Positions 1 through 13,365 of a stretch of DNA of 13,365 nt are shown one piece after another. The position numbers and the translations under genes were made by a program. Below the pieces are notes generated by a model. The model worked only from the letters and a program-made list of their open reading frames with translations. It did no database searches and was not told where the DNA came from. The stretch lies in IMG/VR virus record IMGVR_UViG_2606217105_000011, one strand, 5' to 3'. This DNA comes from a virus. Lineage: Duplodnaviria; Heunggongvirae; Uroviricota; Caudoviricetes. Position 1 is the first letter of the stretch. The number at the start of each line of letters is the position of its first letter.

Positions 1-21
1 TCTCAGTCAGAGGTGACTCAC

Positions 22-321
22 ATGACAAAAACAGTATCAACCAGTAAAAAACCCCGTAAACAGCATTCGCCTGAATTTCGCAGTGAAGCCCTGAAGCTTG
101 CTGAACGCATCGGTGTTACTGCCGCAGCCCGTGAACTCAGCCTGTATGAATCACAGCTCTACAACTGGCGCAGTAAACAGCAAAATCAGCAGACGTCTTC
201 TGAACGTGAACTGGAGATGTCTACCGAGATTGCACGTCTCAAACGCCAGCTGGCAGAACGGGATGAAGAGCTGGCTATCCTCCAAAAGGCCGCGACATAC
301 TTCGCGAAGCGCCTGAAATGA
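22..321 (+). CDS. insE: IS3 transposase OrfA (HTH/leucine-zipper, InsE-like)
   Basis: ATG at 22 preceded by GAGGTG (10..15); the ORF-track start at 13 is a GTG-initiated extension. Sequence [32 protein letters not shown]... matches IS3 InsE from memory. Candidate -1 slippery site A-AAG inside CCAAAAGG at 282..289 near the 3' end. Confidence 0.92.
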
Positions 322-1184
322 AGTATGTCTTTATTGAAAAACATCAGGCTGAGTTCAGCATCAAAGCAATGTGCCGCGTGCTCCGGGTGGCCCGCAGCGG
401 CTGGTATACGTGGTGTCAGCGGCGGACAAGGATAAGCACGCGTCAGCAGTTCCGCCAACACTGCGACAGCGTTGTCCTCGCGGCTTTTACCCGGTCAAAA
501 CAGCGTTACGGTGCCCCACGCCTGACGGATGAACTGCGTGCTCAGGGTTACCCCTTTAACGTAAAAACCGTGGCGGCAAGCCTGCGCCGTCAGGGACTGA
601 GGGCAAAGGCCTCCCGGAAGTTCAGCCCGGTCAGCTACCGCGCACACGGCCTGCCTGTGTCAGAAAATCTGTTGGAGCAGGATTTTTACGCCAGTGGCCC
701 GAACCAGAAGTGGGCAGGAGACATCACGTACTTACGTACAGATGAAGGCTGGCTGTATCTGGCAGTGGTCATTGACCTGTGGTCACGTGCCGTTATTGGC
801 TGGTCAATGTCGCCACGCATGACGGCGCAACTGGCCTGCGATGCCCTGCAGATGGCGCTGTGGCGGCGTAAGAGGCCCCGGAACGTTATCGTTCACACGG
901 ACCGTGGAGGCCAGTACTGTTCAGCAGATTATCAGGCGCAACTGAAGCGGCATAATCTGCGTGGAAGTATGAGCGCAAAAGGTTGCTGCTACGATAATGC
1001 CTGCGTGGAAAGCTTCTTTCATTCGCTGAAAGTGGAATGTATCCATGGAGAACACTTTATCAGCCGGGAAATAATGCGGGCAACGGTGTTTAATTATATC
1101 GAATGTGATTACAATCGGTGGCGGCGGCACAGTTGGTGTGGCGGCCTCAGTCCGGAACAATTTGAAAACCAGAACCTCGCTTAG
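318..1184 (+). CDS. insF: IS3 transposase OrfB (DDE catalytic domain, InsF-like); expressed naturally as OrfAB fusion by -1 frameshift
   Basis: 288-aa ORF in the -1 frame relative to orfA, overlapping at ATGA (318..321). DDE-type motifs visible: [36 protein letters not shown]. Confidence 0.92.
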
Positions 1185-1197
1185 GCCTGTGTCCATA

Positions 1198-1761
1198 TTA
1201 CGTGGGTAGGATCAGAACTCCATCCAGTCGTTTGGGGTTGCTAATGACGTCCTGCATCCGCTTAATCTGGTCGGGCGTAGACATATAATCCCACAGGGTG
1301 AGCAGAACCTTTTTTGCGGCTACACTATTTCCCTGATCTGATACTAATGCCATATAGCCCCATAAACTATCCCTCAGCCAGACAGCATCATAGTGGGTTT
1401 CTGCCGCTGTTTTGTCATCTTCGAAAGTAGAAGCAAGAATAAATGTTCCCCAGGGTTTCTCCGTCAACGTTAACTTTCGTGTGTTTTCTGTTAATGTTAA
1501 CAACCCTTGAATTTCGTCTTTGGTATAGTGGCTCTTTATTTCATTTTTTAATTTGGCTGAGTGAATCAGAAGACGATAATTAGGGTACTTATCTGGATTT
1601 AACGATAAATAACTTTTATCTGTTGCTGCCCCCGTGGAATTAAGAATGTTAAATACAGATTCACTCGTCACTTCTGCCCCTGTCGCCTGGCATGTGCCGC
1701 ACGAAAATATACCAGCGAGCAGAAGAGTTAATGCAGATTTCCCTTTCATAAAATAATCCAT
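1198..1761 (-). pseudogene. IS3-truncated gene for a secreted glycoside hydrolase family 15-like (glucoamylase-family) protein; last 5 codons and stop come from the IS3 terminus
   Basis: Seen: the minus-strand ORF reads across the IS3 end (1214) and stops at 1198..1200 inside IS3. Probable start at ATG 1761 or 1749, giving a classic signal peptide MKGKSALTLLLAGIFSCGTCQA. The segment WGTFILASTFEDDKTAAETHYDAVWLRDSLWG resembles the conserved N-terminal GH15 motif (G-x-[IV]-[IV]-A-S-P-S ... Y-x-W-T-R-D-S). Only about 180 aa precede the junction, far short of a GH15 catalytic domain. Family call is from motif memory only. Confidence 0.45.
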
Positions 1762-2089
1762 CAATCGTTTGTTAAAAGCGTAGATAACCACTTATTCAAC
1801 AACTTGAAAATAAGGTATTTTACCTGGGTTGTTACAAAAGGATTGCATTGCGTAAACGCTTTTTATTTACAAAAAAATGGGGAAGTGTTACAGCGATTGC
1901 GAAAAGCCTGAAGCGGTTGAATTAAGATAATATAGAAAATCAGATACAGCAAAAATGGCAGATTGATCAGGTGAAGATAAATTGGAGCGGGCGAAGGGAA
2001 TCGAGGAAACCCATAATAACCTGCTGTAAAATAAAGATTTTGTGATCAATCATAGGTAACTGATTACGTGATAATAGAGGATCATTATC

Positions 2090-3310
2090 GTGTCGATCAA
2101 GAGCCAAGCATACTTATTTAAAAGAAAAGATGGGATCTGGATGTTTCAGATTTTTGTTCCTAAATACTTACGTCATCTTTACCCTTATAAGTTGTGGAGA
2201 AAAAGCACATCTACACGAGATCTGAATGAGGCGAGAAGATTCAGAAACCATCTATTATTAGAATGGGAGGAACTAAAGCGAAAACATAATCCTGATAACC
2301 CCGAAAGGAGGTTACAAAAAGCTATTGAATCCTTACATTCAGAGGCAAGGGCCAATAAAAACACGCAAAGAGCCGTAAAACGCGGTTATGCACCGCCTTC
2401 CCTGTGCCTAATACGTGACGAATACGCCGAATGCTACAGAGAGCGTCGTTCATACTCAACACTACAGAAATCAGCAAGGGCCGTTGAGCTATTTTTACAA
2501 AGCATTCAGAAAGATGATATTCATATTGAGAAAATAGGCAGACGGCTTGTAACAGTATTCTTAGATGACCAGAAGCAACGAGGAGCAGCCGATCAATCTC
2601 GTCAAAACTGGCTTACATGCTTAGGATCGCTCTATGAATTTGCTAAACGCCGTTATGACGGAATACCAGACAGTAACCCTTTTCACGGTCATAACCTCGA
2701 AGCACGTCGCACAATCGAGAGTTATCAACCGTTTACACCTGAACAAATGCAAAAGCTACTTGATGCAGCGGAGCCGGAGATCAGAAATATTATTTTAATG
2801 GGCTTGTTTTCAGGATGCAGATTAGACGAACTGGCAAGCCTGAAAAAGTCAGAGGTTGTAACTGTGGAAGGAATACGCTGTTTTTATATCAGCAAGAGTA
2901 AGACTAAAGCAGGGATCAGACACGTTCCGATACATTCGAGACTATCGATTATTGTCGATGAATATTTAAATCATAATTATGGTGAATATTTGTTCCCTCA
3001 CTCGAACAAAGTAAAAAGAATCGACGGCAAGAAAGGCCCGTTCTATTCTCAAGCATTCTCACGTTTACGTCGTAACGTCTTGCCAATCGCTACAGATAGA
3101 CAATGCTTTCACAGCTTGCGCGGGATGTTTATCACTTGTCTTGATCGTGCCGGAGTGCCTGAACAGCGGATCGGAGCCATTACCGGACATACAGAGCAGA
3201 GAGCTAAAACAGAAGCCTTTCGCACCTACTCACAAGGGGCAAGCATTCCAGAATTAGCTGAATATGTAGAATTAGTAAAATATGAATTAAATATTGATTT
3301 TAAGGCGTAA
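2090..3310 (+). CDS. int: Tyrosine-type site-specific recombinase (phage/island integrase), 406 aa, GTG start
   Basis: C-terminal catalytic signature readable in the translation: R in GCRLDELASL, K in the SKSKTKAG hairpin region, H-x-x-R in CFHSLRGMF, H in ITGHTEQ, and the nucleophile Y in FRTYSQG about 36 residues after HxxR. The N-terminal region looks like an arm-type DNA-binding domain. Upstream GAGGAT serves as an SD-like sequence. Confidence 0.85.
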   Translation: MSIKSQAYLFKRKDGIWMFQIFVPKYLRHLYPYKLWRKSTSTRDLNEARRFRNHLLLEWEELKRKHNPDNPERRLQKAIESLHSEARANKNTQRAVKRGYAPPSLCLIRDEYAECYRERRSYSTLQKSARAVELFLQSIQKDDIHIEKIGRRLVTVFLDDQKQRGAADQSRQNWLTCLGSLYEFAKRRYDGIPDSNPFHGHNLEARRTIESYQPFTPEQMQKLLDAAEPEIRNIILMGLFSGCRLDELASLKKSEVVTVEGIRCFYISKSKTKAGIRHVPIHSRLSIIVDEYLNHNYGEYLFPHSNKVKRIDGKKGPFYSQAFSRLRRNVLPIATDRQCFHSLRGMFITCLDRAGVPEQRIGAITGHTEQRAKTEAFRTYSQGASIPELAEYVELVKYELNIDFKA

Positions 3311-3335
3311 AACAACGCCATAAACGTAATAAAAA

Positions 3336-3368
3336 GGCTTCCTTGTAATGGGAGCCTCTTATATGCTT
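3336..3368. terminator. Putative bidirectional intrinsic terminator between convergent int and structural operon
   Basis: Hairpin GGCTTCC(3336..3342)-ttgtaat-GGGAGCC(3350..3356): 7 bp with one G-U wobble on the plus-strand RNA, followed by TCTTATATGCTT. On the minus-strand RNA the stem has one A-C mismatch but is followed by a UUUUUAUUAC tract. Sits in the 108-bp gap between convergent genes. Confidence 0.4.
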
Positions 3369-3417
3369 AATTCCTTACAAGAGTGTTTTAGATTGTGATT
3401 AAACATTCTCTTTATCA

Positions 3418-5259
3418 TTAACTTGGTGCTTGCCCAGACAGAGCCGCCAACGTGAAACTACGTTCAAAATCTTGTTGGATACTTCCCACTTTGTAATCGA
3501 GGTATGATCCAAGCTGACTACCATCAGGGGCGATATTCACATCCACCTTGCTTTCCGGCACGTTTACGACGATGTTCGGTGCATACGTCATAGATGGGGT
3601 AGTGTTCAGATCACGGCTAACGTTCTGTTTCAGGGATTGCACGTTATCAGATGGGCTTGCATAGTTCTGAATTGCAGTTCCGCCAGTCGTTGGCTTGTCT
3701 TCCGTGCCAGGAATAGGATCTAAGCCTAAAGCACTACGACCCCAATCAACCATACCACCTACAAACGAGTCCTTATAATACATACCGGACGAATCAAGGT
3801 TTTCATGCTTGTTCTCTGGGTTGATATTTTGGTATGCAGCAGTAAGCCACGATACAGCACCAGCAAAGGCGCTCATCATTTCAGCCGTTGAGCTTCCAAG
3901 TTCTTTAAACAGAGGATTCAAATCTTTCAACATTTGCGCCCACTCTTCACCAGCTTGAGCATCGAACTCTTCACCAAATCCAGTCATGATAGCTTTCTTA
4001 CTACCTTCCCATGCCATATTCATATTTGCCTGTACCGCTTGCAGACGTTCGGCAGCGTCCAGATCCGCTTGTGTATAGGTGGCATTGGCCTTTTGCATCT
4101 TAACGATGGTCTTGTTTAGCTCTTCACCATTACGACTAAAGGCACCACGGAAATATTGCAAATCATTGCCCAGGTCTTCAAGGATGTGCCCGATTTCTTG
4201 ATCTGATAATCCACGGCGTTCACCTTCTTTCACTACAGCGCCCAGGAAACCTAAAGGATCAGTCTGGAAACCTTTAACCTGTTCAGGTGACCAGCCATAT
4301 TTATTAAGGATGTTATCGACGGCACCATTACCGCCAGCCCAGCGACCTTTCTTAGCGTCCCATTTGGTATTCCCTACGGATTCACCTAAACGTTCCTGAA
4401 CGTCTTTAAGGTTGTCTTGACGTTGGTCTACGGAACTATCAACACCGTGTTCTAAGCCGTACTGGTTGAGAGCTAACAGGGCGTTAGTGTTTACGTTGAC
4501 AGCCTTTGCCTTGCGGTTAGTGTCTGTGATCTTGCTTGCCTGATCGGTTACGGTATTGAATATCGCAGCACCGCCGAAAGTAGCAGCAGTGAGAGCGGCA
4601 CCGCCTACCATTGCACCGACACCAGCGCCCATATGACCACCTTTAAGCTGTTTAGCCATATGTGGGTATTTACCGCCATCAGCCGCCACCTGGCGAGCTT
4701 TTACAGCAGCCGCACGGCGTTCTAACGTGATACGATCACGGATCAGGTGATTCATCTTAGCCTGGCTTATAGCGCCTTTCTCATACGCTGCCGTTTGTGC
4801 TTTGATGTATTGCAATGTTTTGTAGTACTGGGCGCTATCCATACCGTCGCCCATACGCCCTTTTTTGATGCCTTCAAGCTGTCTAAAAGCTTGCTGGCGT
4901 TTAATCTCTGCCTTCTCTGCTATTGTCGCTTTAGCGCGGATCTGTTTATCGGCAGCTATAGCGGCTTTAGCTTTCGCTTTAGCTTCTGCCTTTGCCACCT
5001 TATCAGCGTTCTTCTTGTCCGTTTGAGCTTGCTTGTCTGACGCTTTAGCATCAGCTTTAGCCTGTGTAGCTTTACGAGCCTTTACCAGATCATGAGCATC
5101 GTCTATAGCTTTTTTAGCCTTCTTCCCTTTCATCGTTGGATTGGTTAGGTTTTCCATTTCTTTTTGAAATTTCTTCCCTGCATCGCGTGCTTTCTGCAAT
5201 GATGCAAAATCAACTTTAAATACAACCTTGTTTGTTAAGGTTGAGATGTTTAAATCCAT
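3418..5259 (-). CDS. Phage structural protein, 613 aa: N-terminal Lys/Ala-rich coiled coil, central Gly-rich hydrophobic segment, large C-terminal domain (tape-measure-like, scaffold-like or internal/ejection protein; identity unresolved)
   Basis: ATG at 5259 with AAGGAAAA SD; stop 20 nt after the preceding gene. Composition features: KAKAKAAIAADKQIRAKATIAEKAEIKRQQ repeats, then GGHMGAGVGAMVGGAALTAATFGGAAIF. No motif I can assign to a named family by eye. Confidence 0.5.
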   Translation of the reverse strand: MDLNISTLTNKVVFKVDFASLQKARDAGKKFQKEMENLTNPTMKGKKAKKAIDDAHDLVKARKATQAKADAKASDKQAQTDKKNADKVAKAEAKAKAKAAIAADKQIRAKATIAEKAEIKRQQAFRQLEGIKKGRMGDGMDSAQYYKTLQYIKAQTAAYEKGAISQAKMNHLIRDRITLERRAAAVKARQVAADGGKYPHMAKQLKGGHMGAGVGAMVGGAALTAATFGGAAIFNTVTDQASKITDTNRKAKAVNVNTNALLALNQYGLEHGVDSSVDQRQDNLKDVQERLGESVGNTKWDAKKGRWAGGNGAVDNILNKYGWSPEQVKGFQTDPLGFLGAVVKEGERRGLSDQEIGHILEDLGNDLQYFRGAFSRNGEELNKTIVKMQKANATYTQADLDAAERLQAVQANMNMAWEGSKKAIMTGFGEEFDAQAGEEWAQMLKDLNPLFKELGSSTAEMMSAFAGAVSWLTAAYQNINPENKHENLDSSGMYYKDSFVGGMVDWGRSALGLDPIPGTEDKPTTGGTAIQNYASPSDNVQSLKQNVSRDLNTTPSMTYAPNIVVNVPESKVDVNIAPDGSQLGSYLDYKVGSIQQDFERSFTLAALSGQAPS

Positions 5260-5277
5260 AATATTTTCCTTTACCTT

Positions 5278-5493
5278 TTATTTATTCTGTTTTGATACGT
5301 AATATTGCACTGCTTCCATAGCGGAACAGCCTGTAGCAAAAATTCTTTGACGTACAGCGGTATTAGAGATCCCTAAAAACTTACATACTTGTGAGATATT
5401 TAGAATATCTTCCGGTAAGGTGGAAACAGCTTTCAGGATTTCAACGGGATTGTTATTTTGTGTGTTCATGGTTTTCTCACTTTTATTCGACAT
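5278..5493 (-). CDS. Small HTH DNA-binding protein (excisionase/AlpA-like or regulatory); probable true start at the internal ATG 5469 (MNTQ..., 63 aa)
   Basis: Helix-turn-helix-like segment DILNISQVCKFLGISNTAVRQRI. The internal ATG has a weak GAGAAA SD while the first ATG has none. Located between the capsid gene and the 613-aa gene in the same operon. Confidence 0.45.
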   Translation of the reverse strand: MSNKSEKTMNTQNNNPVEILKAVSTLPEDILNISQVCKFLGISNTAVRQRIFATGCSAMEAVQYYVSKQNK

Positions 5494-5613
5494 TAGAAAA
5501 CAAAAAGGGCAAAGAGATCCGTTACTGTATTTGTTTTACAGGTTAGTTAATCCCTTTTGCCCTTATTGCCTGTTTTATTTCCAGTCGCACAGGAAACGAC
5601 TATTAACGCTTTA

Positions 5614-6642
5614 TTACGCTACTGTGATCTGTACAGTGAAGCCTACGCCGTGGTTTACAACCATCTGGCTATTCTCGGTAACTACGTTTACAGCGTCGTT
5701 ACGTGCTGGGCTAAATGCATAGCTGTAATATTCAGCCGATCCAGAGTTCAGAAGGTCGAACGTTGAAGAAGGAGCGCCGAAAATGTTCTGATAGACGTTA
5801 GAGCCTTTAGCGAACTTCGGAACAGCCACCGCATCAGAAGTCATATGAGCCAGCAGCAGCGGATCGGTAACTTTGATCAGATCAATGTTAGTGCCTGGAA
5901 TAGTGAAGGTAGTCACACCTGGCAGCAGGGAGCGCACACTATAAACGATGTTTGCGTCATCGGTAGGGCTTGCATACTGGAACGCGTTAACCATGCCAGC
6001 ACTGTAACGGATAGCGTTAAATGCAGCAGGTTTACAGAATACAACGATACGCTCTACAGCAGCCGCCTGGCTTTGTGCTTTAGTAATAACGTCTGTATGC
6101 ATCTGATCGAATTGCTGGAACACCATAGAAGGCGTGGTGCTTGATGCGTCGATGGTTGCAGTCAGCGGAACAGCACTAAACAGATCGCCCCACTGAATCA
6201 GCACATCGTCAGTTTTAGGGGTGTAGGTGCGACCACTAAACAGGGAAGCAGCCAGTACGCTTTCTTTAGTACGCTGGAAAGCAATGTGGTGCTTAGCAAC
6301 ATATTCCGCGTAGATATCTGTCAGAGTCTCTTCAACGGTAGCGCCTGGTTTACGTTTGCCTTGAACGTCTTGCGGCTTAATCATATCTTCACGCAGGAAG
6401 TAGGGGATCTCTACTAAAAATTCTTTACCCTGTTCACGTTTAGTCACGTTATGTTCAGAAGAGAAACGAGAGGTTTCTTTGTTGAACAGAGATTCGTTAG
6501 TTTCCACCAGTTGGCTAACAGCCACTTTATGAGAACTCACACCTACCGGATCAGTGAAGTCCAGAGTAGTTAACAGGAAGTTGCGAGAGTCGTGCAGACT
6601 AAACAGCGGAGCCAGATCGACGGATTCATTACCAATAATCAT
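5614..6642 (-). CDS. Major capsid protein, lambda gpE-like family (342 aa)
   Basis: ATG at 6642 with AAAGGAATAAACATA upstream. Length matches lambda gpE (341 aa). By-eye colinear motif resemblance to lambda gpE: DLAPLFSL vs FDPLFLRLF near the N-terminus, IVVFCKPAAFNAI vs NIIVFDPKGWALF, DANIVYSVRS vs DVAIVVYSGQ, and C-terminal GFTVQITVA vs EFVSVQLA. Not search-verified. Confidence 0.6.
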   Translation of the reverse strand: MIIGNESVDLAPLFSLHDSRNFLLTTLDFTDPVGVSSHKVAVSQLVETNESLFNKETSRFSSEHNVTKREQGKEFLVEIPYFLREDMIKPQDVQGKRKPGATVEETLTDIYAEYVAKHHIAFQRTKESVLAASLFSGRTYTPKTDDVLIQWGDLFSAVPLTATIDASSTTPSMVFQQFDQMHTDVITKAQSQAAAVERIVVFCKPAAFNAIRYSAGMVNAFQYASPTDDANIVYSVRSLLPGVTTFTIPGTNIDLIKVTDPLLLAHMTSDAVAVPKFAKGSNVYQNIFGAPSSTFDLLNSGSAEYYSYAFSPARNDAVNVVTENSQMVVNHGVGFTVQITVA

Positions 6643-6660
6643 TATGTTTATTCCTTTATA

Positions 6661-7032
6661 TTAAGATGTGAATACAGTGTTAAAACCAGCCATCTGGAAG
6701 CCTTTAGCAGCCAGAGCAGCAATAGCGGCTTCTTTAATAGCGCCTTCAACATTCAGAGCATCAGACTTGATGCAAACCAGTCCGGCATTGCTACGCAGCA
6801 CGTTAACGGTTTTAGCGTCGCCAGCGGATACCGCATCAGACACAACCACAAGAACATCGCCGCCGCTTACATATTCAGCGCCGTTACTGGTAATCAGATC
6901 GCCGCATTCCACATCAACCGCCAGATCAACGGTAAAAGATTGCACACAACCGAACTCATCAGTTGCATAGCTCACGATATCGGTAAATGATTTGCGAACT
7001 GGAAACAGATCGCTCATATTAATAATAGCCAT
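6661..7032 (-). CDS. Small capsid-associated protein, candidate head decoration/cementing protein (123 aa)
   Basis: Positional only: encoded immediately upstream of the gpE-like capsid gene (as gpD is in lambda), has a decoration-protein size, is Gly/Ala/Val-rich, and has a strong SD (AAGGAAA). I could not see convincing sequence similarity to lambda gpD. Confidence 0.3.
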   Translation of the reverse strand: MAIINMSDLFPVRKSFTDIVSYATDEFGCVQSFTVDLAVDVECGDLITSNGAEYVSGGDVLVVVSDAVSAGDAKTVNVLRSNAGLVCIKSDALNVEGAIKEAAIAALAAKGFQMAGFNTVFTS

Positions 7033-7034
7033 AA

Positions 7035-7250
7035 TTAATAGTTTCCTTTTTTGGATTGTTTGATTTGTTCTGCTTTTGCTTTAATCAGATCCTGCATAGT
7101 AGGCTTCTGTTCATCAGCAGACTTAAAAAGCTTATCACAATGTTTTTTCAATTCTGTTGGAGTGATCCCCAACATATAAGCCGTAGCATTGAATGTTTCA
7201 TCAGTGATAATCAATTCTTCGTTACCATTCTTTAGAATGAGATTTTGCAT
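7035..7250 (-). CDS. Hypothetical small protein (71 aa), first gene of the capsid operon
   Basis: ATG at 7250 with AAAGGTAAAG upstream; its stop abuts the next gene's SD/start (7032). No recognisable motif. Confidence 0.4.
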   Translation of the reverse strand: MQNLILKNGNEELIITDETFNATAYMLGITPTELKKHCDKLFKSADEQKPTMQDLIKAKAEQIKQSKKGNY

Positions 7251-7290
7251 TGTTGCTTTACCTTTTTTCTAACGTTCTTGTTTAGTCCTG

Positions 7291-7322
7291 ATAAAATAAA
7301 ACCGGAAGGGGAAAGCTTCCGG
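7291..7322 (-). terminator. Intrinsic terminator (minus-strand orientation)
   Basis: Perfect 7-bp stem CCGGAAG(7302..7308)/CTTCCGG(7316..7322) with a 7-nt loop. On the minus-strand RNA it is followed directly by UUUUAUUUUAU (reverse complement of 7291..7301). On the plus strand the U-tract is poor. Confidence 0.6.
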
Positions 7323-7444
7323 CTTTATGGATACAAAACATATGAAGGATGCGATAGAAGTGTTACTAAATCGTATTTATATGCACTTAAAGAGGGTAGG
7401 ACATATAAGAATAAGATTGCTTATTGTTATATACCCTTGAGGGG

Positions 7445-7520
7445 TGAATAACAGGCTTACAGGGAGTAGGCGCTTAGGAGGTCGCCCCCTTTGGAGAGGA
7501 ATCTATAAACCTGTTATTCG
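7445..7520. repeat. 10-bp perfect inverted repeat (GAATAACAGG ... CCTGTTATTC) flanking a 54-bp GC-rich core; candidate RNA stem-loop or protein-binding/recombination site
   Basis: Seen: 7446..7455 is the exact reverse complement of 7510..7519. The enclosed sequence contains a GGCG...CGCC sub-hairpin and an AGGAGG motif. A 10-bp perfect inverted repeat this close together is unlikely by chance. Confidence 0.45.
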
Positions 7521-7786
7521 TGCGATGGCTAATCGCTGTCTTTCTCAATGTGGATGCATCGATCAGACTTTCAGGAATCACCTATTAACTTTCAAACCTT
7601 TTGGATTCTCATTTTAATAGGAGGCGGTGCCGAGATGATTTCGGGGATCATCCACGCATTTCGCGTTCTAAGATTGGCACCTTAATAAACACCAACAAAC
7701 AAAAAACTTATTTAGCTTTGGGCTTAATAGAAACTGTTGTCAAGAAACAGATATACACCGTTATTTGTTTATACGGGGTTTATAGA

Positions 7787-7807
7787 CACTGTAAACAGTG
7801 TTTTTAG
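7787..7807 (+). terminator. Putative intrinsic terminator (plus-strand orientation)
   Basis: ACACTG(7787..7792)-TAAA-CAGTGT(7797..7802) hairpin followed by TTTTT on the plus strand. Implies a plus-strand transcript ending here inside the ORF-poor region. Confidence 0.4.
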
Positions 7808-7825
7808 AAAGTGTTTCATGCTTCA

Positions 7826-7865
7826 CAGTTGGTTAAAAAGATGAGGGGCCAAGTCCTTAGCCCCT
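7826..7865 (-). terminator. Putative intrinsic terminator (minus-strand orientation) downstream of the small-gene operon
   Basis: Stem AGGGGC(7844..7849)/GCCCCT(7860..7865) with a 10-nt loop. On the minus-strand RNA it is followed by CUCAUCUUUUUAAC. About 265 nt downstream of the last gene of the operon (ends 8130). Confidence 0.35.
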
Positions 7866-8129
7866 GCATTCTTAAGACACAATATGATAAAGCAATAAGG
7901 AAAATAAAATGAAACTATTAACGAGGGAAACAATTTCTAAAAATCACTGTAAAGGGAAAGCGAGGCAGGTTAGATAGGGCGCGACCCCTTGAGGTCTACC
8001 CCGCTTTCGTGTAGGATTAGAATCGGTAGAAGGTTTAACGCCAGCTAACACCTGTTTTCTATTCTGCCCCCTATATTTCTTATTATATAACATTTCTGTT
8101 AGAAAGTCAATAGGTAAATCAAAGTTTTT

Positions 8130-8342
8130 TCAGTTCTTTTCGTTCGTTAACTGCCAATCACCAAATACACAATTACCATCTAAAACAATTGTTTGTTCGT
8201 TACCGTTATCATCGGTTACGTGCATCAGGCGGGTGTAATTGTCGAGATTGCCAGTGTAGATCTTGCCTACTGTGAAGCAATTACCCGCTTTGCCTTCTTC
8301 TGTGAGTGCCAGGAGGCGCACACGTTTAGTTTTTACTGTCAT
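8130..8342 (-). CDS. Hypothetical small protein (70 aa)
   Basis: Start at 8342 overlaps the stop of the upstream gene (translational coupling). Last gene of a minus-strand operon. Confidence 0.45.
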   Translation of the reverse strand: MTVKTKRVRLLALTEEGKAGNCFTVGKIYTGNLDNYTRLMHVTDDNGNEQTIVLDGNCVFGDWQLTNEKN

Positions 8343-8650
8343 TAGTTGTTAGCCTTATCGATTAGTTGTGCTATGAGTGGTTGCAAGTCTGCTACCGCTT
8401 GTTGCATGATTTCAGTGGTGTCATTGATCACGGTAATCAGGTTATTCAGATCATCAGCTTCAATCTGTGCACCTTCGGATTGTTTGCACGCTTCAATAAG
8501 CAATTGCAGTGCTTCCCGCGTCGATTCCAGATTAATAACCGCCTGTGTGATGGTCAGTTCGCTTGGAAAGGTCAGAGCCGCATTAACTGCTTTCTGTAAA
8601 GAAATAATAAGATCGTACATCTGAAGCGTTACGTTGTGTGTAGTGCTCAT
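8342..8650 (-). CDS. Hypothetical small acidic, predicted all-helical protein (102 aa)
   Basis: Start at 8650 overlaps the stop of the upstream gene. Strong excess of D/E over K/R in the translation. Confidence 0.5.
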   Translation of the reverse strand: MSTTHNVTLQMYDLIISLQKAVNAALTFPSELTITQAVINLESTREALQLLIEACKQSEGAQIEADDLNNLITVINDTTEIMQQAVADLQPLIAQLIDKANN

Positions 8651-8871
8651 TATGCCACTTCCTCTAATTGTTCTAATTGTTGTTGTGCTTCGCGTGCTTT
8701 CTTCATAGCGATAGTGAGCGGAATTTTATAAGTTGCAATGCTGTCTATAACGTCATCCAGAATTGCCAGATCGTTCTCTTCCTTTGCTCGTTCGATAATA
8801 TCTATGAAGCATTCTGAAAGAAGCTTGAGATCGTGAAAAGTGGTTGTCTCTAAAATTGCTTTGTTAATCAT
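8650..8871 (-). CDS. Hypothetical small acidic helical protein (73 aa)
   Basis: ATG at 8871 with AAAAGGAAAA SD; stop overlaps the next gene's start at 8650. Confidence 0.5.
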   Translation of the reverse strand: MINKAILETTTFHDLKLLSECFIDIIERAKEENDLAILDDVIDSIATYKIPLTIAMKKAREAQQQLEQLEEVA

Positions 8872-8912
8872 TTTATTTTCCTTTTGTTAAGGGTTATATT
8901 CATCTAATGCTG

Positions 8913-9293
8913 TTAATCGTCAATGTTTACTTTATCAAGTAGAAGTAAGTCTGTTTCTCGAACTCCTGCATATTGCAGGCTATTAAGCGCCATATACCCC
9001 CTAAAATGGGCCATGTCTGAAAATCCCAAACATTGCCATCTTTTAAGAAGACTACTATCAATGATTGTTGTTTTGCGTGGGCGTGGATTGAAGTAAACGC
9101 CAGGCATACTTTGAATGATTGATAATTCTGTGTCTGTTAATTCTGGGCTTGGTTCTTCAAGTATGAAGATCAATTCTTCGCCTGGTTCCGCATCATGCTC
9201 ATAGTTATATTTACGAGGATTGTTTAACGCATACTGATCACATGCTTCGCCAATAGTTGTTATTACGTTTTTCTTACCTTTTTTCTTGCTCAT
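8913..9293 (-). CDS. Hypothetical protein (126 aa), Lys-rich N-terminus
   Basis: ATG at 9293 with GAAGGGGAAG SD. No recognisable motif. Confidence 0.5.
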   Translation of the reverse strand: MSKKKGKKNVITTIGEACDQYALNNPRKYNYEHDAEPGEELIFILEEPSPELTDTELSIIQSMPGVYFNPRPRKTTIIDSSLLKRWQCLGFSDMAHFRGYMALNSLQYAGVRETDLLLLDKVNIDD

Positions 9294-9414
9294 TGCTTCC
9301 CCTTCGTTTTGTTTTTCTTGTTGCAGTGTTAAAAAAGGAAGCGATCATAAATACTAAGAAAAATATTAAGCTTTCCATTGTTTCACCCTTCAAGATGTTT
9401 GATAGTTGTTTGTT

Positions 9415-9633
9415 TTAAGCTACAGAGTCGATTCTGAATGCTTTCATATGAGTTTTGGTATACTGCAATAATCCTTGTTTACTTAGGCTATCGAGAAGAG
9501 CATATAAAAATTGCTCACCTACCACACCGGAAAACTCAGAATCAAACAGAATCATTCCCGTTCTTTCCCGTAAATATTGCAGAAAGGTTTCTTGTGAAAA
9601 TTCGCTATCGAATATGGTCACAGCGCCACCCAC
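9415..9633 (-). CDS. Hypothetical ORF (72 aa from a GTG start, no SD); may be the C-terminal part of a split or frameshifted gene
   Basis: Frame is open from 9651 with a GTG at 9633 and no convincing SD. It overlaps the end of the upstream ORF by 16 nt with a 34-nt two-frame-open window (9618..9651). Confidence 0.25.
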   Translation of the reverse strand: MGGAVTIFDSEFSQETFLQYLRERTGMILFDSEFSGVVGEQFLYALLDSLSKQGLLQYTKTHMKAFRIDSVA

Positions 9634-9875
9634 AATTCGAAAGGGCTTATCTCAAGCAAACGGAACGTCTGACTATTCACAGCCTCATACTTAATTACCC
9701 CAAAATGGCTCAGGTGATTTAACCAGTGCTGTGTGTGTTCTTTACTATGAGGTAACTCCTGCCAGCTGATAATCGCGGGTAGCTCATAATTGCTATCAGC
9801 AAGCTGTTTTGCCAGTGTGTAGCCGCTTTCTGTAATTTCGAATGTTCGTTTGTTTAATGTCAGGTTGTATTTCAT
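9618..9875 (-). CDS. Hypothetical protein (85 aa); possibly the N-terminal part of a frameshifted gene continued by 9415..9633
   Basis: ATG at 9875 with AAGGAGAA SD. Its frame ends at 9618 while the downstream ORF frame is already open from 9651. Confidence 0.45.
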   Translation of the reverse strand: MKYNLTLNKRTFEITESGYTLAKQLADSNYELPAIISWQELPHSKEHTQHWLNHLSHFGVIKYEAVNSQTFRLLEISPFELWVAL

Positions 9876-9887
9876 TTTTTATTCTCC

Positions 9888-10553
9888 TTAAAATGGTATT
9901 GAGTCATAGATTTCACTTTCTTTTCTCAGGGCTATCATCAGTGCATTAAAAGCATCATCTTCAAGAATTATCCTCTTCGAGGTCAGTGCACGTTTTATAA
10001 AATTTTCTGTTTCTTCTTGCATAGGCTTTTGGCTGTCTATGGAAATAAGCCATGTAAAAAGATCAGATTGTTCCGTGATTTCTGCCTGTGTTTCCTGCTC
10101 AATAGAGTGTGTCGCTTCTAACGGTTCCTGTGTTTCAGGTGCAGGCTGTTCTACGTTTACAGAGGTTTTTACGTCTTCCGGTGGTGTGATGTGTGCATCT
10201 GTAAAGGGTAATGCTTTATAGAGTGATGTTTGCCCGTCCCGTGCCTCTACAGAAAGAACACCCATATCAATAAACATATTTATAATATTACGCACCTGAC
10301 GATCACTAACCATTCCAATATTAGCTAATGTTTTTTGATTGGCGTAACATTCTTGCCCTTGTTCATTGAACCCAGCTACGTAACTGTAGATTTCAACGGC
10401 TGGAAGTGTCGCGGTGTATTCCTTACCTGACGGTGAGAACCACTTTTTAAACATCTTCAGCCATTGTTCAACTACTACATATGTTTGTTTACTATCTTTC
10501 TTATTGAGGCATTGCGCTTTTGCTTCGGCAATTGTTTTGGTGTTTTGGTTCAT
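9888..10553 (-). CDS. Winged-helix/HTH DNA-binding protein with acidic linker and C-terminal helical domain (221 aa); candidate replication initiator/replisome organiser or regulator
   Basis: ATG at 10553 with a perfect AAGGAGG SD 6 nt upstream. HTH-like segment NIGMVSDRQVRNIINMFIDMGVL; acidic E/Q/T-rich linker; C-terminal helical region. Functional call is an inference from architecture. Confidence 0.5.
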   Translation of the reverse strand: MNQNTKTIAEAKAQCLNKKDSKQTYVVVEQWLKMFKKWFSPSGKEYTATLPAVEIYSYVAGFNEQGQECYANQKTLANIGMVSDRQVRNIINMFIDMGVLSVEARDGQTSLYKALPFTDAHITPPEDVKTSVNVEQPAPETQEPLEATHSIEQETQAEITEQSDLFTWLISIDSQKPMQEETENFIKRALTSKRIILEDDAFNALMIALRKESEIYDSIPF

Positions 10554-10677
10554 TTAGTTCCTCCTTTGTAAGGACTGTAATTAGTAATTCATTAACAAGT
10601 TTTGGAATTGATTTCCCTTCTGCCTTTGCACGATTTAACAACGCGTTATAAGTTGCAGAATCAAAATTAATATTCAT
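10501..10677 (-). CDS. Ribbon-helix-helix (CopG/Arc/MetJ-like) small DNA-binding protein, 58 aa; not in the supplied ORF track
   Basis: Hand-translated from the minus strand: MNINFDSATYNALLNRAKAEGKSIPKLVNELLITVLTKEELNEPKHQNNCRSKSAMPQ. ATG at 10677 with AGGAGAAGGAG upstream. Beta-strand/helix/G-K-S turn/helix pattern typical of RHH proteins (compare CopG ...MAREMGLSKSAMISVAL...). Its 3' end overlaps the start of the 221-aa gene by 53 nt in another frame. Confidence 0.55.
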   Translation of the reverse strand: MNINFDSATYNALLNRAKAEGKSIPKLVNELLITVLTKEELNEPKHQNNCRSKSAMPQ

Positions 10678-10700
10678 TTGGTTTTCTCCTTCTCCTGTTA

Positions 10701-10883
10701 TTATTCTTTCTCTGCTTCTGCCTTACGCAGTTCATCAATAATTTTTAGTGCATCGTCAAAGCATTTTTCACGCTCTGGATAACCACAGCGCCGCGCTGTG
10801 TTCCTGTTCATCCTTACTTGATGTCGTGTTAGCTCACCTTTTTTAAATGCCTCTACGACGTGTTCCGGTGTATACCATTTCAT
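10701..10883 (-). CDS. Hypothetical small basic protein (60 aa, MKWYTPEHVV...), first gene of the small-gene operon
   Basis: ATG at 10883 with AAGGAG 7 nt upstream. The longer track ORF (to 10916) starts at a GTG with no SD. Confidence 0.45.
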   Translation of the reverse strand: MKWYTPEHVVEAFKKGELTRHQVRMNRNTARRCGYPEREKCFDDALKIIDELRKAEAEKE

Positions 10884-11867
10884 AAAAAACTCCTTATTTA
10901 GATAAAAGAAAAACACACCTTGCAGCCTGACGGCTCAAAGTGCAGTGTTCTGTGATTTGATTATTTAGATGGAGAGAGATGTTTCTCCCCTCCCTACTTA
11001 CAATACTACATAACGGCGGCTTTGTCAACCCTCTTTTATAAAAAATCTGATCATTTTCAATTTCTTATAATTTTTCTTAGCTTTTTGTGCTGCATACTCT
11101 GGTACAATTCTTCCCTGTTGTCTAAAACGCTCTCAATCGCACTCTGACGGGGTTTTGATAAAAACAATACATTCCCTTATGTAGAGGTTGTTTATCTCGT
11201 CGGAGGCTTATTTAAGGGGCTTATTTTTGATTTATCAGATGATGGAAAGATGGTGGATAGATAAACTCTGATTTCAGACATCTTATAAAATACCTGCAAA
11301 GTTCTCAGAAGCTCTGTAACGAGCTAATCTATTACCGCTAAGGTGTTTCCCTTACATTACCCTGTTTAGCTCGCCTACGGCTTGATTTAAGCGGTAGAAT
11401 CTTATTTAACCTTCAACTACAAAAACCATTCTTTCTTTTTTGTTGTTGGTTGTTTTGTCATGTTATGCGTTAGCATCCCCAAAGGGTAACGCGACACTAA
11501 CAACCATTCGCTTACGCTCAGGTTATTGCACAAGTAAATTTCAATCGTTAGATGGTAGTTAGTTAATTATCGTTCTGCGCACAGCGCAAGACTATTAGCC
11601 ATACGCAAGCCGTAGGCTATTTGCACATAGTAGATTACATATTCGTTGTGAGCGGAAAGCGAACATAGATCAGCTAACTACTAACAAAAAACAAAAAACA
11701 AAAACTATCTGTTATGACAAGCATCAGTCTAACTTGTGCAAGGTTCTGGCGAATGCCAATAGATTAAGGGATAGTCGAAGACTCCCTAACGGGTATCCCT
11801 ATAATTATTCTTTAAAAGATAAAAGAATTTATAAAAGATAGTTTAATTGTAGTTTAATTATAGTATT

Positions 11868-11919
11868 GTAGGAACTCATTTCCTGGGTAGGTAGGAACTC
11901 ATTTCCTGGGTAGGTAGGG
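11868..11919. repeat. Tandem direct repeat, 2 copies of a 23-bp unit GTAGGAACTCATTTCCTGGGTAG plus a partial third copy; each unit contains the palindrome AGGAA-N5-TTCCT
   Basis: Seen: 11868..11890 and 11891..11913 are identical, followed by GTAGGG. Internal inverted repeat AGGAA(11870..11874)/TTCCT(11880..11884). Lies in a 1.2-kb ORF-free region. Iteron/operator-like. Confidence 0.7.
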
Positions 11920-12181
11920 AAACCGCACTATACACTGGTAAGTGTCTTGCACAGAAAAAGGTATCAAAAATGTCTAAAGCCCCTTTAGATAAAAATGATA
12001 CCTTTATACATGCGCTAATAGCGCGCATAACAATAACCTACTAACAACTAACTAACTAAAAAGTAAGAAGATGTTGTTATGATTAGTGTATCGCTCAACG
12101 CTCACATCTATCTCTGATCTATAAATTGGTAACTGTCTAACAACAACAAACTGATCCTACCCACGTAATATGGACACAGGC

Positions 12182-13048
12182 CTAAGCGAGGTTCTGGTTT
12201 TCAAATTGTTCCGGACTGAGGCCGCCACACCAACTGTGCCGCCGCCACCGATTGTAATCACATTCGATATAATTAAACACCGTTGCCCGCATTATTTCCC
12301 GGCTGATAAAGTGTTCTCCATGGATACATTCCACTTTCAGCGAATGAAAGAAGCTTTCCACGCAGGCATTATCGTAGCAGCAACCTTTTGCGCTCATACT
12401 TCCACGCAGATTATGCCGCTTCAGTTGCGCCTGATAATCTGCTGAACAGTACTGGCCTCCACGGTCCGTGTGAACGATAACGTTCCGGGGCCTCTTACGC
12501 CGCCACAGCGCCATCTGCAGGGCATCGCAGGCCAGTTGCGCCGTCATGCGTGGCGACATTGACCAGCCAATAACGGCACGTGACCACAGGTCAATGACCA
12601 CTGCCAGATACAGCCAGCCTTCATCTGTACGTAAGTACGTGATGTCTCCTGCCCACTTCTGGTTCGGGCCACTGGCGTAAAAATCCTGCTCCAACAGATT
12701 TTCTGACACAGGCAGGCCGTGTGCGCGGTAGCTGACCGGGCTGAACTTCCGGGAGGCCTTTGCCCTCAGTCCCTGACGGCGCAGGCTTGCCGCCACGGTT
12801 TTTACGTTAAAGGGGTAACCCTGAGCACGCAGTTCATCCGTCAGGCGTGGGGCACCGTAACGCTGTTTTGACCGGGTAAAAGCCGCGAGGACAACGCTGT
12901 CGCAGTGTTGGCGGAACTGCTGACGCGTGCTTATCCTTGTCCGCCGCTGACACCACGTATACCAGCCGCTGCGGGCCACCCGGAGCACGCGGCACATTGC
13001 TTTGATGCTGAACTCAGCCTGATGTTTTTCAATAAAGACATACTTCAT
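12182..13048 (-). CDS. insF: IS3 transposase OrfB (InsF-like, DDE)
   Basis: Translation identical to the 318..1184 ORF. Confidence 0.92.
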
Positions 13049-13344
13049 TTCAGGCGCTTCGCGAAGTATGTCGCGGCCTTTTGGAGGATAGCCAGCTCTT
13101 CATCCCGTTCTGCCAGCTGGCGTTTGAGACGTGCAATCTCGGTAGACATCTCCAGTTCACGTTCAGAAGACGTCTGCTGATTTTGCTGTTTACTGCGCCA
13201 GTTGTAGAGCTGTGATTCATACAGGCTGAGTTCACGGGCTGCGGCAGTAACACCGATGCGTTCAGCAAGCTTCAGGGCTTCACTGCGAAATTCAGGCGAA
13301 TGCTGTTTACGGGGTTTTTTACTGGTTGATACTGTTTTTGTCAT
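13045..13344 (-). CDS. insE: IS3 transposase OrfA (InsE-like)
   Basis: Translation identical to copy A orfA; ATG start placed at the mirrored position of 22. Confidence 0.92.
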
Positions 13345-13365
13345 GTGAGTCACCTCTGACTGAGA

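Follow-up and report, generated by a model that had tools for sequence, protein, structure and literature searches.

What occupies the interval between the early and late gene blocks of a satellite-like island? The question is raised by a stretch of caudoviricete DNA of 13,365 nucleotides (IMG/VR record IMGVR_UViG_2606217105_000011), called the window in the following, in which a gap of 879 bp (positions 7251 to 8129) lies between two blocks of minus-strand genes. The original prediction placed a non-coding RNA locus at this boundary, with transcripts from both strands. The RNA locus and its position between the two blocks of a phage-satellite-like island were borne out, as stems are conserved with compensatory changes and no open reading frame (ORF) is conserved; the two-strand arrangement was not. 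The locus is a single leader unit on the minus strand, the fold and strand of which are well supported, while its transcription, termination, and function are inferred. It represents an undescribed structured RNA family with a known kind of layout, i.e., a late-operon leader with terminators, and it is unusual in its length, in the strength of its covariation support, and in its array of loops resembling anti-Shine-Dalgarno (anti-SD) sequences. The predicted RNA has a length of about 790 nt and features about a dozen hairpins.

The gap is non-coding. It contains 10 ORFs of at least 25 amino acids on both strands taken together, each kept intact by at most 6 of 13 homologous E. coli copies, and 54 of the 60 distinct runs of insertions or deletions are not multiples of three; the earlier view that positions 7251 to 8129 hold no credible coding sequence thus stands. 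Conservation of the gap is about equal to that of the flanking genes, and substitutions keep the structure described below, which argues against a decayed coding sequence with unconserved hairpins. Nearly all of the 63 to 68 complete E. coli genomes carrying the gap lack an annotation for it. The region from 6900 to 8500 contains five terminator-like sites, compared with 1.1 +/- 1.3 in shuffled sequences. A covariance-model scan with Rfam 15, one of the checks proposed beforehand, covered the window and seven related loci, with both the gathering threshold and permissive E-values (up to 10 for the window) as cut-offs; no family matched the gap, and the permissive scan returned only chance snoRNA matches with E above 1 inside it. 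As a positive control, the same scan recovered a genuine C4 RNA at 12073-12160 of one related locus (L009; 81 bits), outside the island.

Several measures assign the structure to the minus strand. The minimum free energy of the minus-strand RNA (8076-7285) has a z-score of -7.35, compared with -3.5 for the plus strand, and the consensus fold of 14 E. coli copies (87-99% identical) reaches -182.5 kcal/mol on the minus strand versus -158.8 kcal/mol on the plus strand. The RNAalifold consensus of these copies comprises 207 pairs in 27 helices, with 98.4% of the alignment cells paired. Eight pairs show double-sided changes, compared with zero to three when the partners are slid, and none of 500 shuffles reaches the observed pairing values. 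Within the covariation-supported stems, imperfect or one-sided positions are G-U pairs if read on the minus strand, but would be A-C mismatches on the plus strand or in a DNA palindrome. The 13-bp hairpin near the 5' end is a case in point: all three of its variable pairs (100-142, 102-140, and 103-139) swap only G-U with G-C or A-U on the minus strand. The preceding 5' hairpin keeps its stem in island type B by changing UUAGC to UUAGU or UUGAC. Further downstream, the predicted branched hairpin holds ACGC-GAAAU-GCGU (7666-7654) and GGAUGAU-CCCCGAA-AUCAUCU (7653-7633), the latter being the GATGAT-N7-ATCATC repeat noticed originally; the small GAAA hairpin displays two compensatory pairs (467-480 and 469-478), and locus L042 has GCAC/GUGC in its place. 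Where the window leader is predicted to form its 17-bp AU-rich hairpin, type B has a hairpin of like design and other sequence. The long-range helix enclosing the terminator-like hairpin T1 is predicted only: 11 of its pairs are invariant, 9 are occasionally broken, and compensatory changes are absent.

The strongest covariation was found in a core module of 141 nt (covariance model R1), which consists of the hairpins H1, H2, and H3 and, together with the 5' end, is all that related types at other integration sites share with the window leader. In alignment A4, a hand-annotated MAFFT alignment, 96.7% of the cells are paired, and 12 of the 35 pairs are compensatory, compared with 0 to 4 for slid partners. 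In alignment A7, which adds IMG/VR variants found by DNA pattern and comprises 18 distinct sequences, 17 of the 35 pairs are compensatory versus 1 to 4 in slid controls; note that A7 was realigned to the model and is thus fitted to the structure, and that its changes represent about four lineages rather than 18 independent events. The search for compensatory stem changes, which had been suggested as a check, therefore gave a positive answer. Specifically, the H3 stem occurs in four fully compensated versions with constant loops, and the 10-bp inverted repeat at 7446-7455 and 7510-7519, recognized from the start, forms the base of this 17-bp stem. The inner stem of H3 likewise varies (GGCG/CGCC, UUGGC/GCCAA, GCAUGUU/AGCAUGU, and GGC/GCC) around a constant (C)UCCUAAG loop, and the H1 loop CAUCCA and the H2 loop UUAGCC are held constant over covarying stems. 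The conserved inner loop of H3, CCUCCUAAG, resembles an anti-SD sequence.

The presumed ends of the leader are marked by a promoter and by terminators of the same strand. The promoter agrees with the sigma-70 consensus at 11 of 12 positions and is the sole promoter-like site on either strand between 6900 and 8500; transcription is predicted to start at about 8076-8074. Among the relatives, a promoter scoring 8 to 11 of 12 opens the gap in all 32 distinct gap sequences (first 35 loci, several genera), and a tool scan confirmed it in three other island types. Its spacer harbors a dyad, TAAC-N6-GTTA, which is likely to be an operator for a dimeric regulator. Types A, D, and L035 share this dyad and its position; type B has a degenerate form of it, and type C and the Klebsiella, Pantoea, and Dryocola leaders lack it. 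The dyad-bearing types come from E. coli, Enterobacter, Citrobacter, and an unassigned metagenomic contig. The stop codon of p70, the last early gene, and the leader promoter are too close for a terminator to fit between them, so early transcription would also enter the leader.

All hairpins and repeats listed in the original prediction were found where it had placed them, and its two minus-strand hairpins correspond to the terminator-like hairpin T1 (7826-7865; 9 pairs) and to the intrinsic terminator T2 (7291-7322). The T2 hairpin, GCCGGAAG-CUUUCCC-CUUCCGGU followed by UUUAUUUUAU, has a free energy (dG) of -11.1 kcal/mol and a stem that is invariant in the 14 copies. Its U-tract ends 36 nt ahead of the start codon of p71, the first late gene, and no promoter-like site was found between the two. 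T1 was matched by the terminator scan (hairpin dG, -15.6 kcal/mol); changes occur only in the loop, the core stem being invariant. T1 would end a short RNA of about 240 nt, with an efficiency that is uncertain because the U-tract begins 3 nt past the stem. A terminal hairpin with a U-tract, 23 to 93 nt ahead of the first late gene, was flagged by script in 11 of 14 representative islands and seen by eye in the remaining three; the tool scan confirmed a terminator in three types. The coordinates of all features are listed in Table 1.

Table 1. Positions of the leader elements and of neighboring genes in the window
Feature	Position	Strand	Details
Sigma-70 promoter	8082..8110	-	-35 TTGACT 8110-8105, 17-nt spacer, -10 TATAAT 8087-8082
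Operator-like dyad TAAC-N6-GTTA	8088..8101	.	TAACAGAAATGTTA; inside promoter spacer
5' hairpin	8026..8053	-	AGG-UG-UUAGC-UGGC-GUUAA-A-CCU, then CU-rich motif CCUUCUAC; RNAalifold
13-bp hairpin	7956..8008	-	GAAAGCGGGGUAG / CUGCCUCGCUUUC; RNAalifold
22-bp long-range helix enclosing T1	7795..7950	-	7950-7927 with 7817-7795; RNAalifold
T1, internal terminator-like hairpin	7834..7873	-	GC-rich; core 7865-7844; tail CAUCUUUUUA
Branched hairpin	7626..7681	-	GGUGCC...GGCACC; predicted
Core module (model R1), 141 nt	7441..7581	-	GUGAUUCCU, then H1, H2, H3
H1	7568-7538	-	Loop CAUCCA
H2	7536-7522	-	Loop UUAGCC
H3, 17-bp stem	7519-7446	-	Inner hairpin GGCG/CGCC, 10-nt loop A-CCUCCUAAG, motif 7481-7473
H3 stem arms, lineage 1			5' GAAUAACAGGUUUAUAG / 3' CUGUAAGCCUGUUAUUC
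H3 stem arms, lineage 2			5' GAAUAGCAGGAUCGUAG / 3' CUGCGGUCCUGUUAUUC
H3 stem arms, lineage 3			5' GAAUAGAUAUUCCUGA / 3' UCAGGAAUAUCUGUUC
H3 stem arms, lineage 4			5' GAAUAUCAGAUCUUAG / 3' CUAAGAUCUGAUAUUC
17-bp AU-rich hairpin	7398..7437	-	Then CU-rich motif CCUACCCUCUUUAAG; RNAalifold
T2, intrinsic terminator	7286..7328	-	AAAGCCGGAAG-CUUUCCC-CUUCCGGUUUU + AUUUUAU
Early gene block	about 10916 to 8130	-	Includes O/DnaD-like replication initiator
p70, last gene of early block	8130..8342	-	Stop codon 20 nt ahead of leader -35 box
Late gene block (capsid/tail)	7250 to 3418	-	Five genes
p71 (71 aa), first gene of late operon	7035..7250	-	
gpE-family major capsid protein	5614-6642	-	
Integrase	2090-3310	+	

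All relatives examined, E. coli through Pantoea, have the same layout of promoter, structured leader, terminator, and capsid operon. Relatives were fetched via related capsid proteins (38-98% identity) from E. coli, Klebsiella, Enterobacter, Citrobacter, Dryocola, and Pantoea; a scan of the genome collection with capsid-protein patterns yielded only two loci, and IMG/VR together with look-ups of exact protein matches supplied the diversity instead. Their gene order is conserved, with a small recombinase, a gap of 1 to 2.5 kb, the early genes, and a gap of 330 to 1000 nt, followed by proteins of 66 to 93 amino acids and about 120 amino acids, the capsid protein, proteins of about 62 and about 615 amino acids, a Dit-like protein in some, and the integrase. 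Of 5,426 complete E. coli genomes, 63 to 68 carry a type A leader and 307 a type C leader. In type C, the unit from promoter to terminator is about 210 nt long, and the leader of 207 nt folds with z = -4.97. The Enterobacter/Citrobacter-type leader folds to -108.8 kcal/mol on the gene strand versus -74.5 kcal/mol on the other and has many double-sided changes, as judged from five sequences only. The core covariance model matches E. coli-type islands A and B only and gave no matches on leaders of other genera; consequently, these share layout and motifs with the window leader, structural homology not being demonstrable with R1. Analogous leaders occur in Klebsiella, Enterobacter, Citrobacter, Cronobacter, Dryocola, and Pantoea. 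The shared motifs are CCUUCU/UUCUUCU (YUUCUUC), present near the leader 5' end in all types as judged by eye, and (C)CUCCU(U)AAG, which recurs across types further along the leader.

How might such a leader act? The reading that we place foremost, and to which we assign about as much confidence as doubt, is drawn from the layout: the terminated leader would gate transcription of the late operon, with the lambdoid PR'-tR' unit as its closest analogue. RNA polymerase would start at the promoter (8110-8082), possibly controlled via the TAAC-N6-GTTA dyad in the spacer, transcribe about 790 nt folding into roughly a dozen hairpins, and stop at T1 (at about 7835) or T2 (at about 7286). Since T2 lies 36 nt upstream of the late genes with no promoter between, and since the early block runs into the leader, the capsid and tail genes would be transcribed only by read-through of the leader terminators. 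The leader would insulate the late operon until some factor suppresses termination, and this factor might be encoded by the island or by a helper phage, or the RNA itself might act on the polymerase in this way. While the gate is closed, two terminated products, of about 240 and 790 nt, would build up, and their conserved, exposed anti-SD-like loops (CCUCCUAAG, CAUCCA, and GAUUCCU) may additionally regulate translation.

A precedent is provided by lambda and Stx phages, in which the always-active late promoter PR' is terminated just downstream and gives a short RNA; in Stx phages, this terminated transcript is itself a regulatory small RNA (PMC7547250). The island resembles these phages in having a strong sigma-70 promoter directly after the last early gene and ahead of the late genes, as well as intrinsic terminators, and no promoter, between this site and the late or structural genes. 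In lambda, Q ends about 45 bp before the -35 element TTGACT, and in the island p70 ends 20 bp before the same hexamer. As with PR', the terminated RNA of the closed state would accumulate and could be a regulator (PMC7547250). The likeness appears confined to the layout; lambda-type pause or Q-binding signals were looked for, without a convincing case. The island differs further in its promoter spacer, which holds the operator-like dyad, in a capsid protein that is not lambda-like in sequence, and in the length of the leader: that of types A and B measures 790 to 1000 nt and has about twelve hairpins, compared with roughly 70 to 200 nt in lambdoid phages.

A number of observations weigh against the gate. 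The dyad suggests control of initiation, which would make a plain constitutive promoter plus terminator an incomplete description. A lambda-like pause element similar to a -10 box is not consistently present after the start; in most types the sequence after the -10 box reads TA(T)AGGG, but this motif lacks the key T of the -10 hexamer and varies freely within type A, where the first 20 nt or so are the most variable part of the leader. Comparison of the small island proteins, including those encoded upstream of the leader, with Pfam, PHROG, and PDB sequences revealed no member of the Q, N, or another antiterminator family. A conserved family of 126-amino-acid proteins was considered as an antiterminator and rejected, as it has no Pfam or PDB-sequence relative and the search gave close homologues only. 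No alternative terminator/antiterminator pairing was found in the leader. The capsid protein shares only 24-26% identity with its counterpart in any sequenced phage, so that the helper is not evidently lambdoid, and the transcript ends are predictions. Finally, a gate needs only about 200 nt, as in type C, so that gating alone does not account for the 600 nt of conserved structure that types A and B have in addition. Because this additional structure is conserved and types A and B bear anti-SD-like loops, a second, trans-acting or sensing role of the leader besides gating is likely but unproven.

Since no antiterminator protein is evident in the island, an RNA-autonomous mechanism like that of put in phage HK022 is conceivable. 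The put element, a cis-acting RNA that is about 70 nt long and folds into two hairpins, protects the polymerase transcribing it against terminators, and the island similarly places a structured RNA between promoter and downstream terminators. A constitutively active element of this kind would, however, make the island terminators pointless unless the promoter is repressed.

An alternative, which may coexist with the gate and which we consider possible though doubtful, is that the main product is one or more trans-acting regulatory RNAs, the loops of which pair with the ribosome-binding sites (RBSs) of island, helper-phage, or host mRNAs. The place of the leader ahead of the capsid operon would then be of minor importance. 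The models here are the Stx-phage StxS RNA and Staphylococcus aureus RNAIII, whose loops bind ribosome-binding sites. Like RNAIII, the leader is a long multi-hairpin RNA with several C/U-rich loops complementary to the Shine-Dalgarno (SD) sequence that are conserved over covarying stems (CCUCCUAAG, CAUCCA, UUAGCC, and two copies of GAUUCC), although the two share neither sequence nor host. Anti-SD-like 5-mers are 1.9-fold enriched in leaders from 13 representative loci (123 versus a shuffle mean of 66; standard deviation, 9.3; maximum, 97), whereas SD-like partners within the same RNAs are not (37 versus 42 in shuffles). This alternative is also in keeping with the strong promoter and with the long U-tail of the Rho-independent terminator, as well as with the fact that types A and B hold far more conserved structure than a gate requires. 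Yet neither the exact complement of the loop, CTTAGGAGG, nor any of its 7-nt substrings occurs on the minus strand of the window, the island mRNAs lack the exact complement, and no target emerged in the island. Which translation start regions pair best depends on the island type, so that a consistent mRNA target among the island start regions was rejected. Complementarity of this kind is also unspecific, as any SD sequence pairs with such motifs. Internal pairing of the G-rich 5' end (UAGGGG) with the CCUCCUA loop was discarded as well, because type A leaders differ freely at the 5' end but share an invariant loop. All late genes (3418-7250) have RBSs of the AAGGA(A) type without a GGAGG core, and AAGGAG or AGGAGG is found at several early genes. 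Ahead of the capsid gene stands AGGAAU, the complement of which is present in the conserved GAUUCCU motifs of the leader, a match too short to be significant alone. A bolder proposal, which we regard as rather unlikely, is that the leaders form a new class of large structured RNAs (0.2-1 kb) specific to undescribed capsid-encoding satellite-like islands, with anti-SD-mimicking loops doing something new for phage leaders. One possibility is that the loops sequester RBSs of helper or island; another is that they sense an infection-specific RNA or protein and open the terminator. In size (0.6-1 kb), prophage or mobile-element context, and covariation-supported fold the leader is reminiscent of GOLLD and ROOL RNAs, but it has no Rfam match to them and differs in its fixed place ahead of a capsid operon and in its promoter and terminators.

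Three further explanations appear very improbable. An RNA immunity system of the P4 CI or P1/P7 c4 type (phage and satellite immunity regions were among the parallels drawn in the original prediction) would involve a small RNA, processed from the leader, that pairs with repeats of the same transcript and either causes termination or blocks translation of downstream genes. The leader does lie in a satellite-like element upstream of genes on the same strand, as do the leader-encoded C4 RNAs (RF01695) of satellites and prophages, which act on their own transcript by loops, one covering a ribosome-binding site; moreover, the stable H3 stem with its conserved loop is followed by ACCC(C), a feature of RNase P substrates. 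We nevertheless judge this explanation very improbable: RF01695 matched neither the window (E up to 10) nor the gaps of L009, L023, and L027, no loop-complementary target repeats occur upstream or downstream on the transcript, and the genes behind the leader are structural ones rather than replication or antirepressor genes. About equally improbable, in our view, is that the inverted repeats work as DNA, serving in packaging (cos/pac), as an origin, or as palindromes bound by a protein. Lacking its own terminase, the island must have a signal for packaging at some place, and the repeats precede p71, a small protein with a helix-turn-helix-like stretch (by eye), in the manner of cosB before lambda Nu1. 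Type A also contains the string GGGGGCGACCTC (7487-7476), about 225 bp ahead of the first late gene, which resembles lambda cosN (GGGCGGCGACCT), the resemblance being a lead rather than a test. This string is missing in types B1 to B3, where the same hairpin has another stem and the same loop; the stems accept G-U and hardly any A-C on the minus strand, which fits RNA and not a DNA palindrome; the fold is clearly better on one strand; and iteron-like repeats sit in the other gap of the island. Look-alikes of RfaH ops and lambda boxA/boxB, which like that of cosN were spotted by eye in type A, were dropped together with it as they are not conserved in type B. Least probable of all is the proposal of convergent or overlapping non-coding transcripts from both strands, or of a type I toxin-antitoxin pair. 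In its favor are a plus-strand hairpin followed by a T-run (7787-7807), the A- and T-runs on either side of T2, which could allow termination in both directions, and a plus-strand AGGAGG-N9-ATG (7620-7637) opening an ORF of 16 codons. The sequence of the 7787-7807 hairpin is indeed present, but it has no plus-strand promoter, and its bases lie in or beside the minus-strand long-range helix. The small ORF is not conserved, being cut to 11 codons by a 1-nt deletion in 12 of 14 copies and rewritten in L042 by compensatory stem changes. On the minus strand lie the sole promoter-like site, the two good terminators, and the gene blocks on either side of the gap, and it is also on this strand that the fold is better and that one-sided substitutions show the G-U pattern.

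If the proposed picture is true, the leader constitutes a new covariation-supported RNA family absent from Rfam, marks the regulatory switch of an uncharacterized satellite-like element with its own capsid and tape-measure-like genes, and offers an entry point to how such elements sense their helper and to the purpose of several anti-SD-like loops per RNA.

The island itself looks like an undescribed satellite-like element. Its segment in the window (1215-12151; 10.9 kb) is 98.3% identical to a chromosomal island of E. coli EC38 adjoining tRNA-Gly, and related islands occupy tRNA-Gly, tRNA-Thr, and further sites, both in several enterobacterial genera and in Pantoea. The late block encodes, in this order, a 71-amino-acid protein, a 123-amino-acid protein, the capsid protein, another 71-amino-acid protein, and a tape-measure-like protein of 613 amino acids; a second recombinase comprises about 190 amino acids, and some islands add a Dit-like protein. 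Portal, protease, and terminase genes are absent from the island. No similar DNA was found in sequenced phages, where the promoter used alone gave only chance AT-rich matches. The segment is flanked by inverted, 100% identical copies of an IS3-family element (window 1-1215 and 12151-13365), each with an orfA of 102 and an orfB of 288 amino acids; relative to EC38, they truncate the right-hand non-coding gap and the left-hand glycoside-hydrolase gene of the island. The pair may reflect a composite arrangement, or else an artefact of assembly.

In all relatives, the early block starts with another unannotated gap, which is larger than the first (1.1-2.5 kb; window 10917-12150; L001 12633-14974; L002 13542-15844). 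In L001 it contains iteron-like direct repeats, namely, a 23-nt tandem unit (13618-13663) and a 15-nt unit present three times, and Rfam gave no match in it; it may be an origin and early control region or another RNA locus. In L009, isrK (69 bits) and the C4 antisense RNA (81 bits) at 11920-12160 belong to a neighboring P4-like element. Locus L005 (JAEWTL010000083.1), labelled "MAG: Bacillota bacterium", holds an island nearly identical to E. coli type B, and this label is probably due to bin contamination. E. coli H19 (NZ_AP027165.1; hits H53 and H135) carries a type A and a type C island at separate sites, so that leader variants coexist within one cell.

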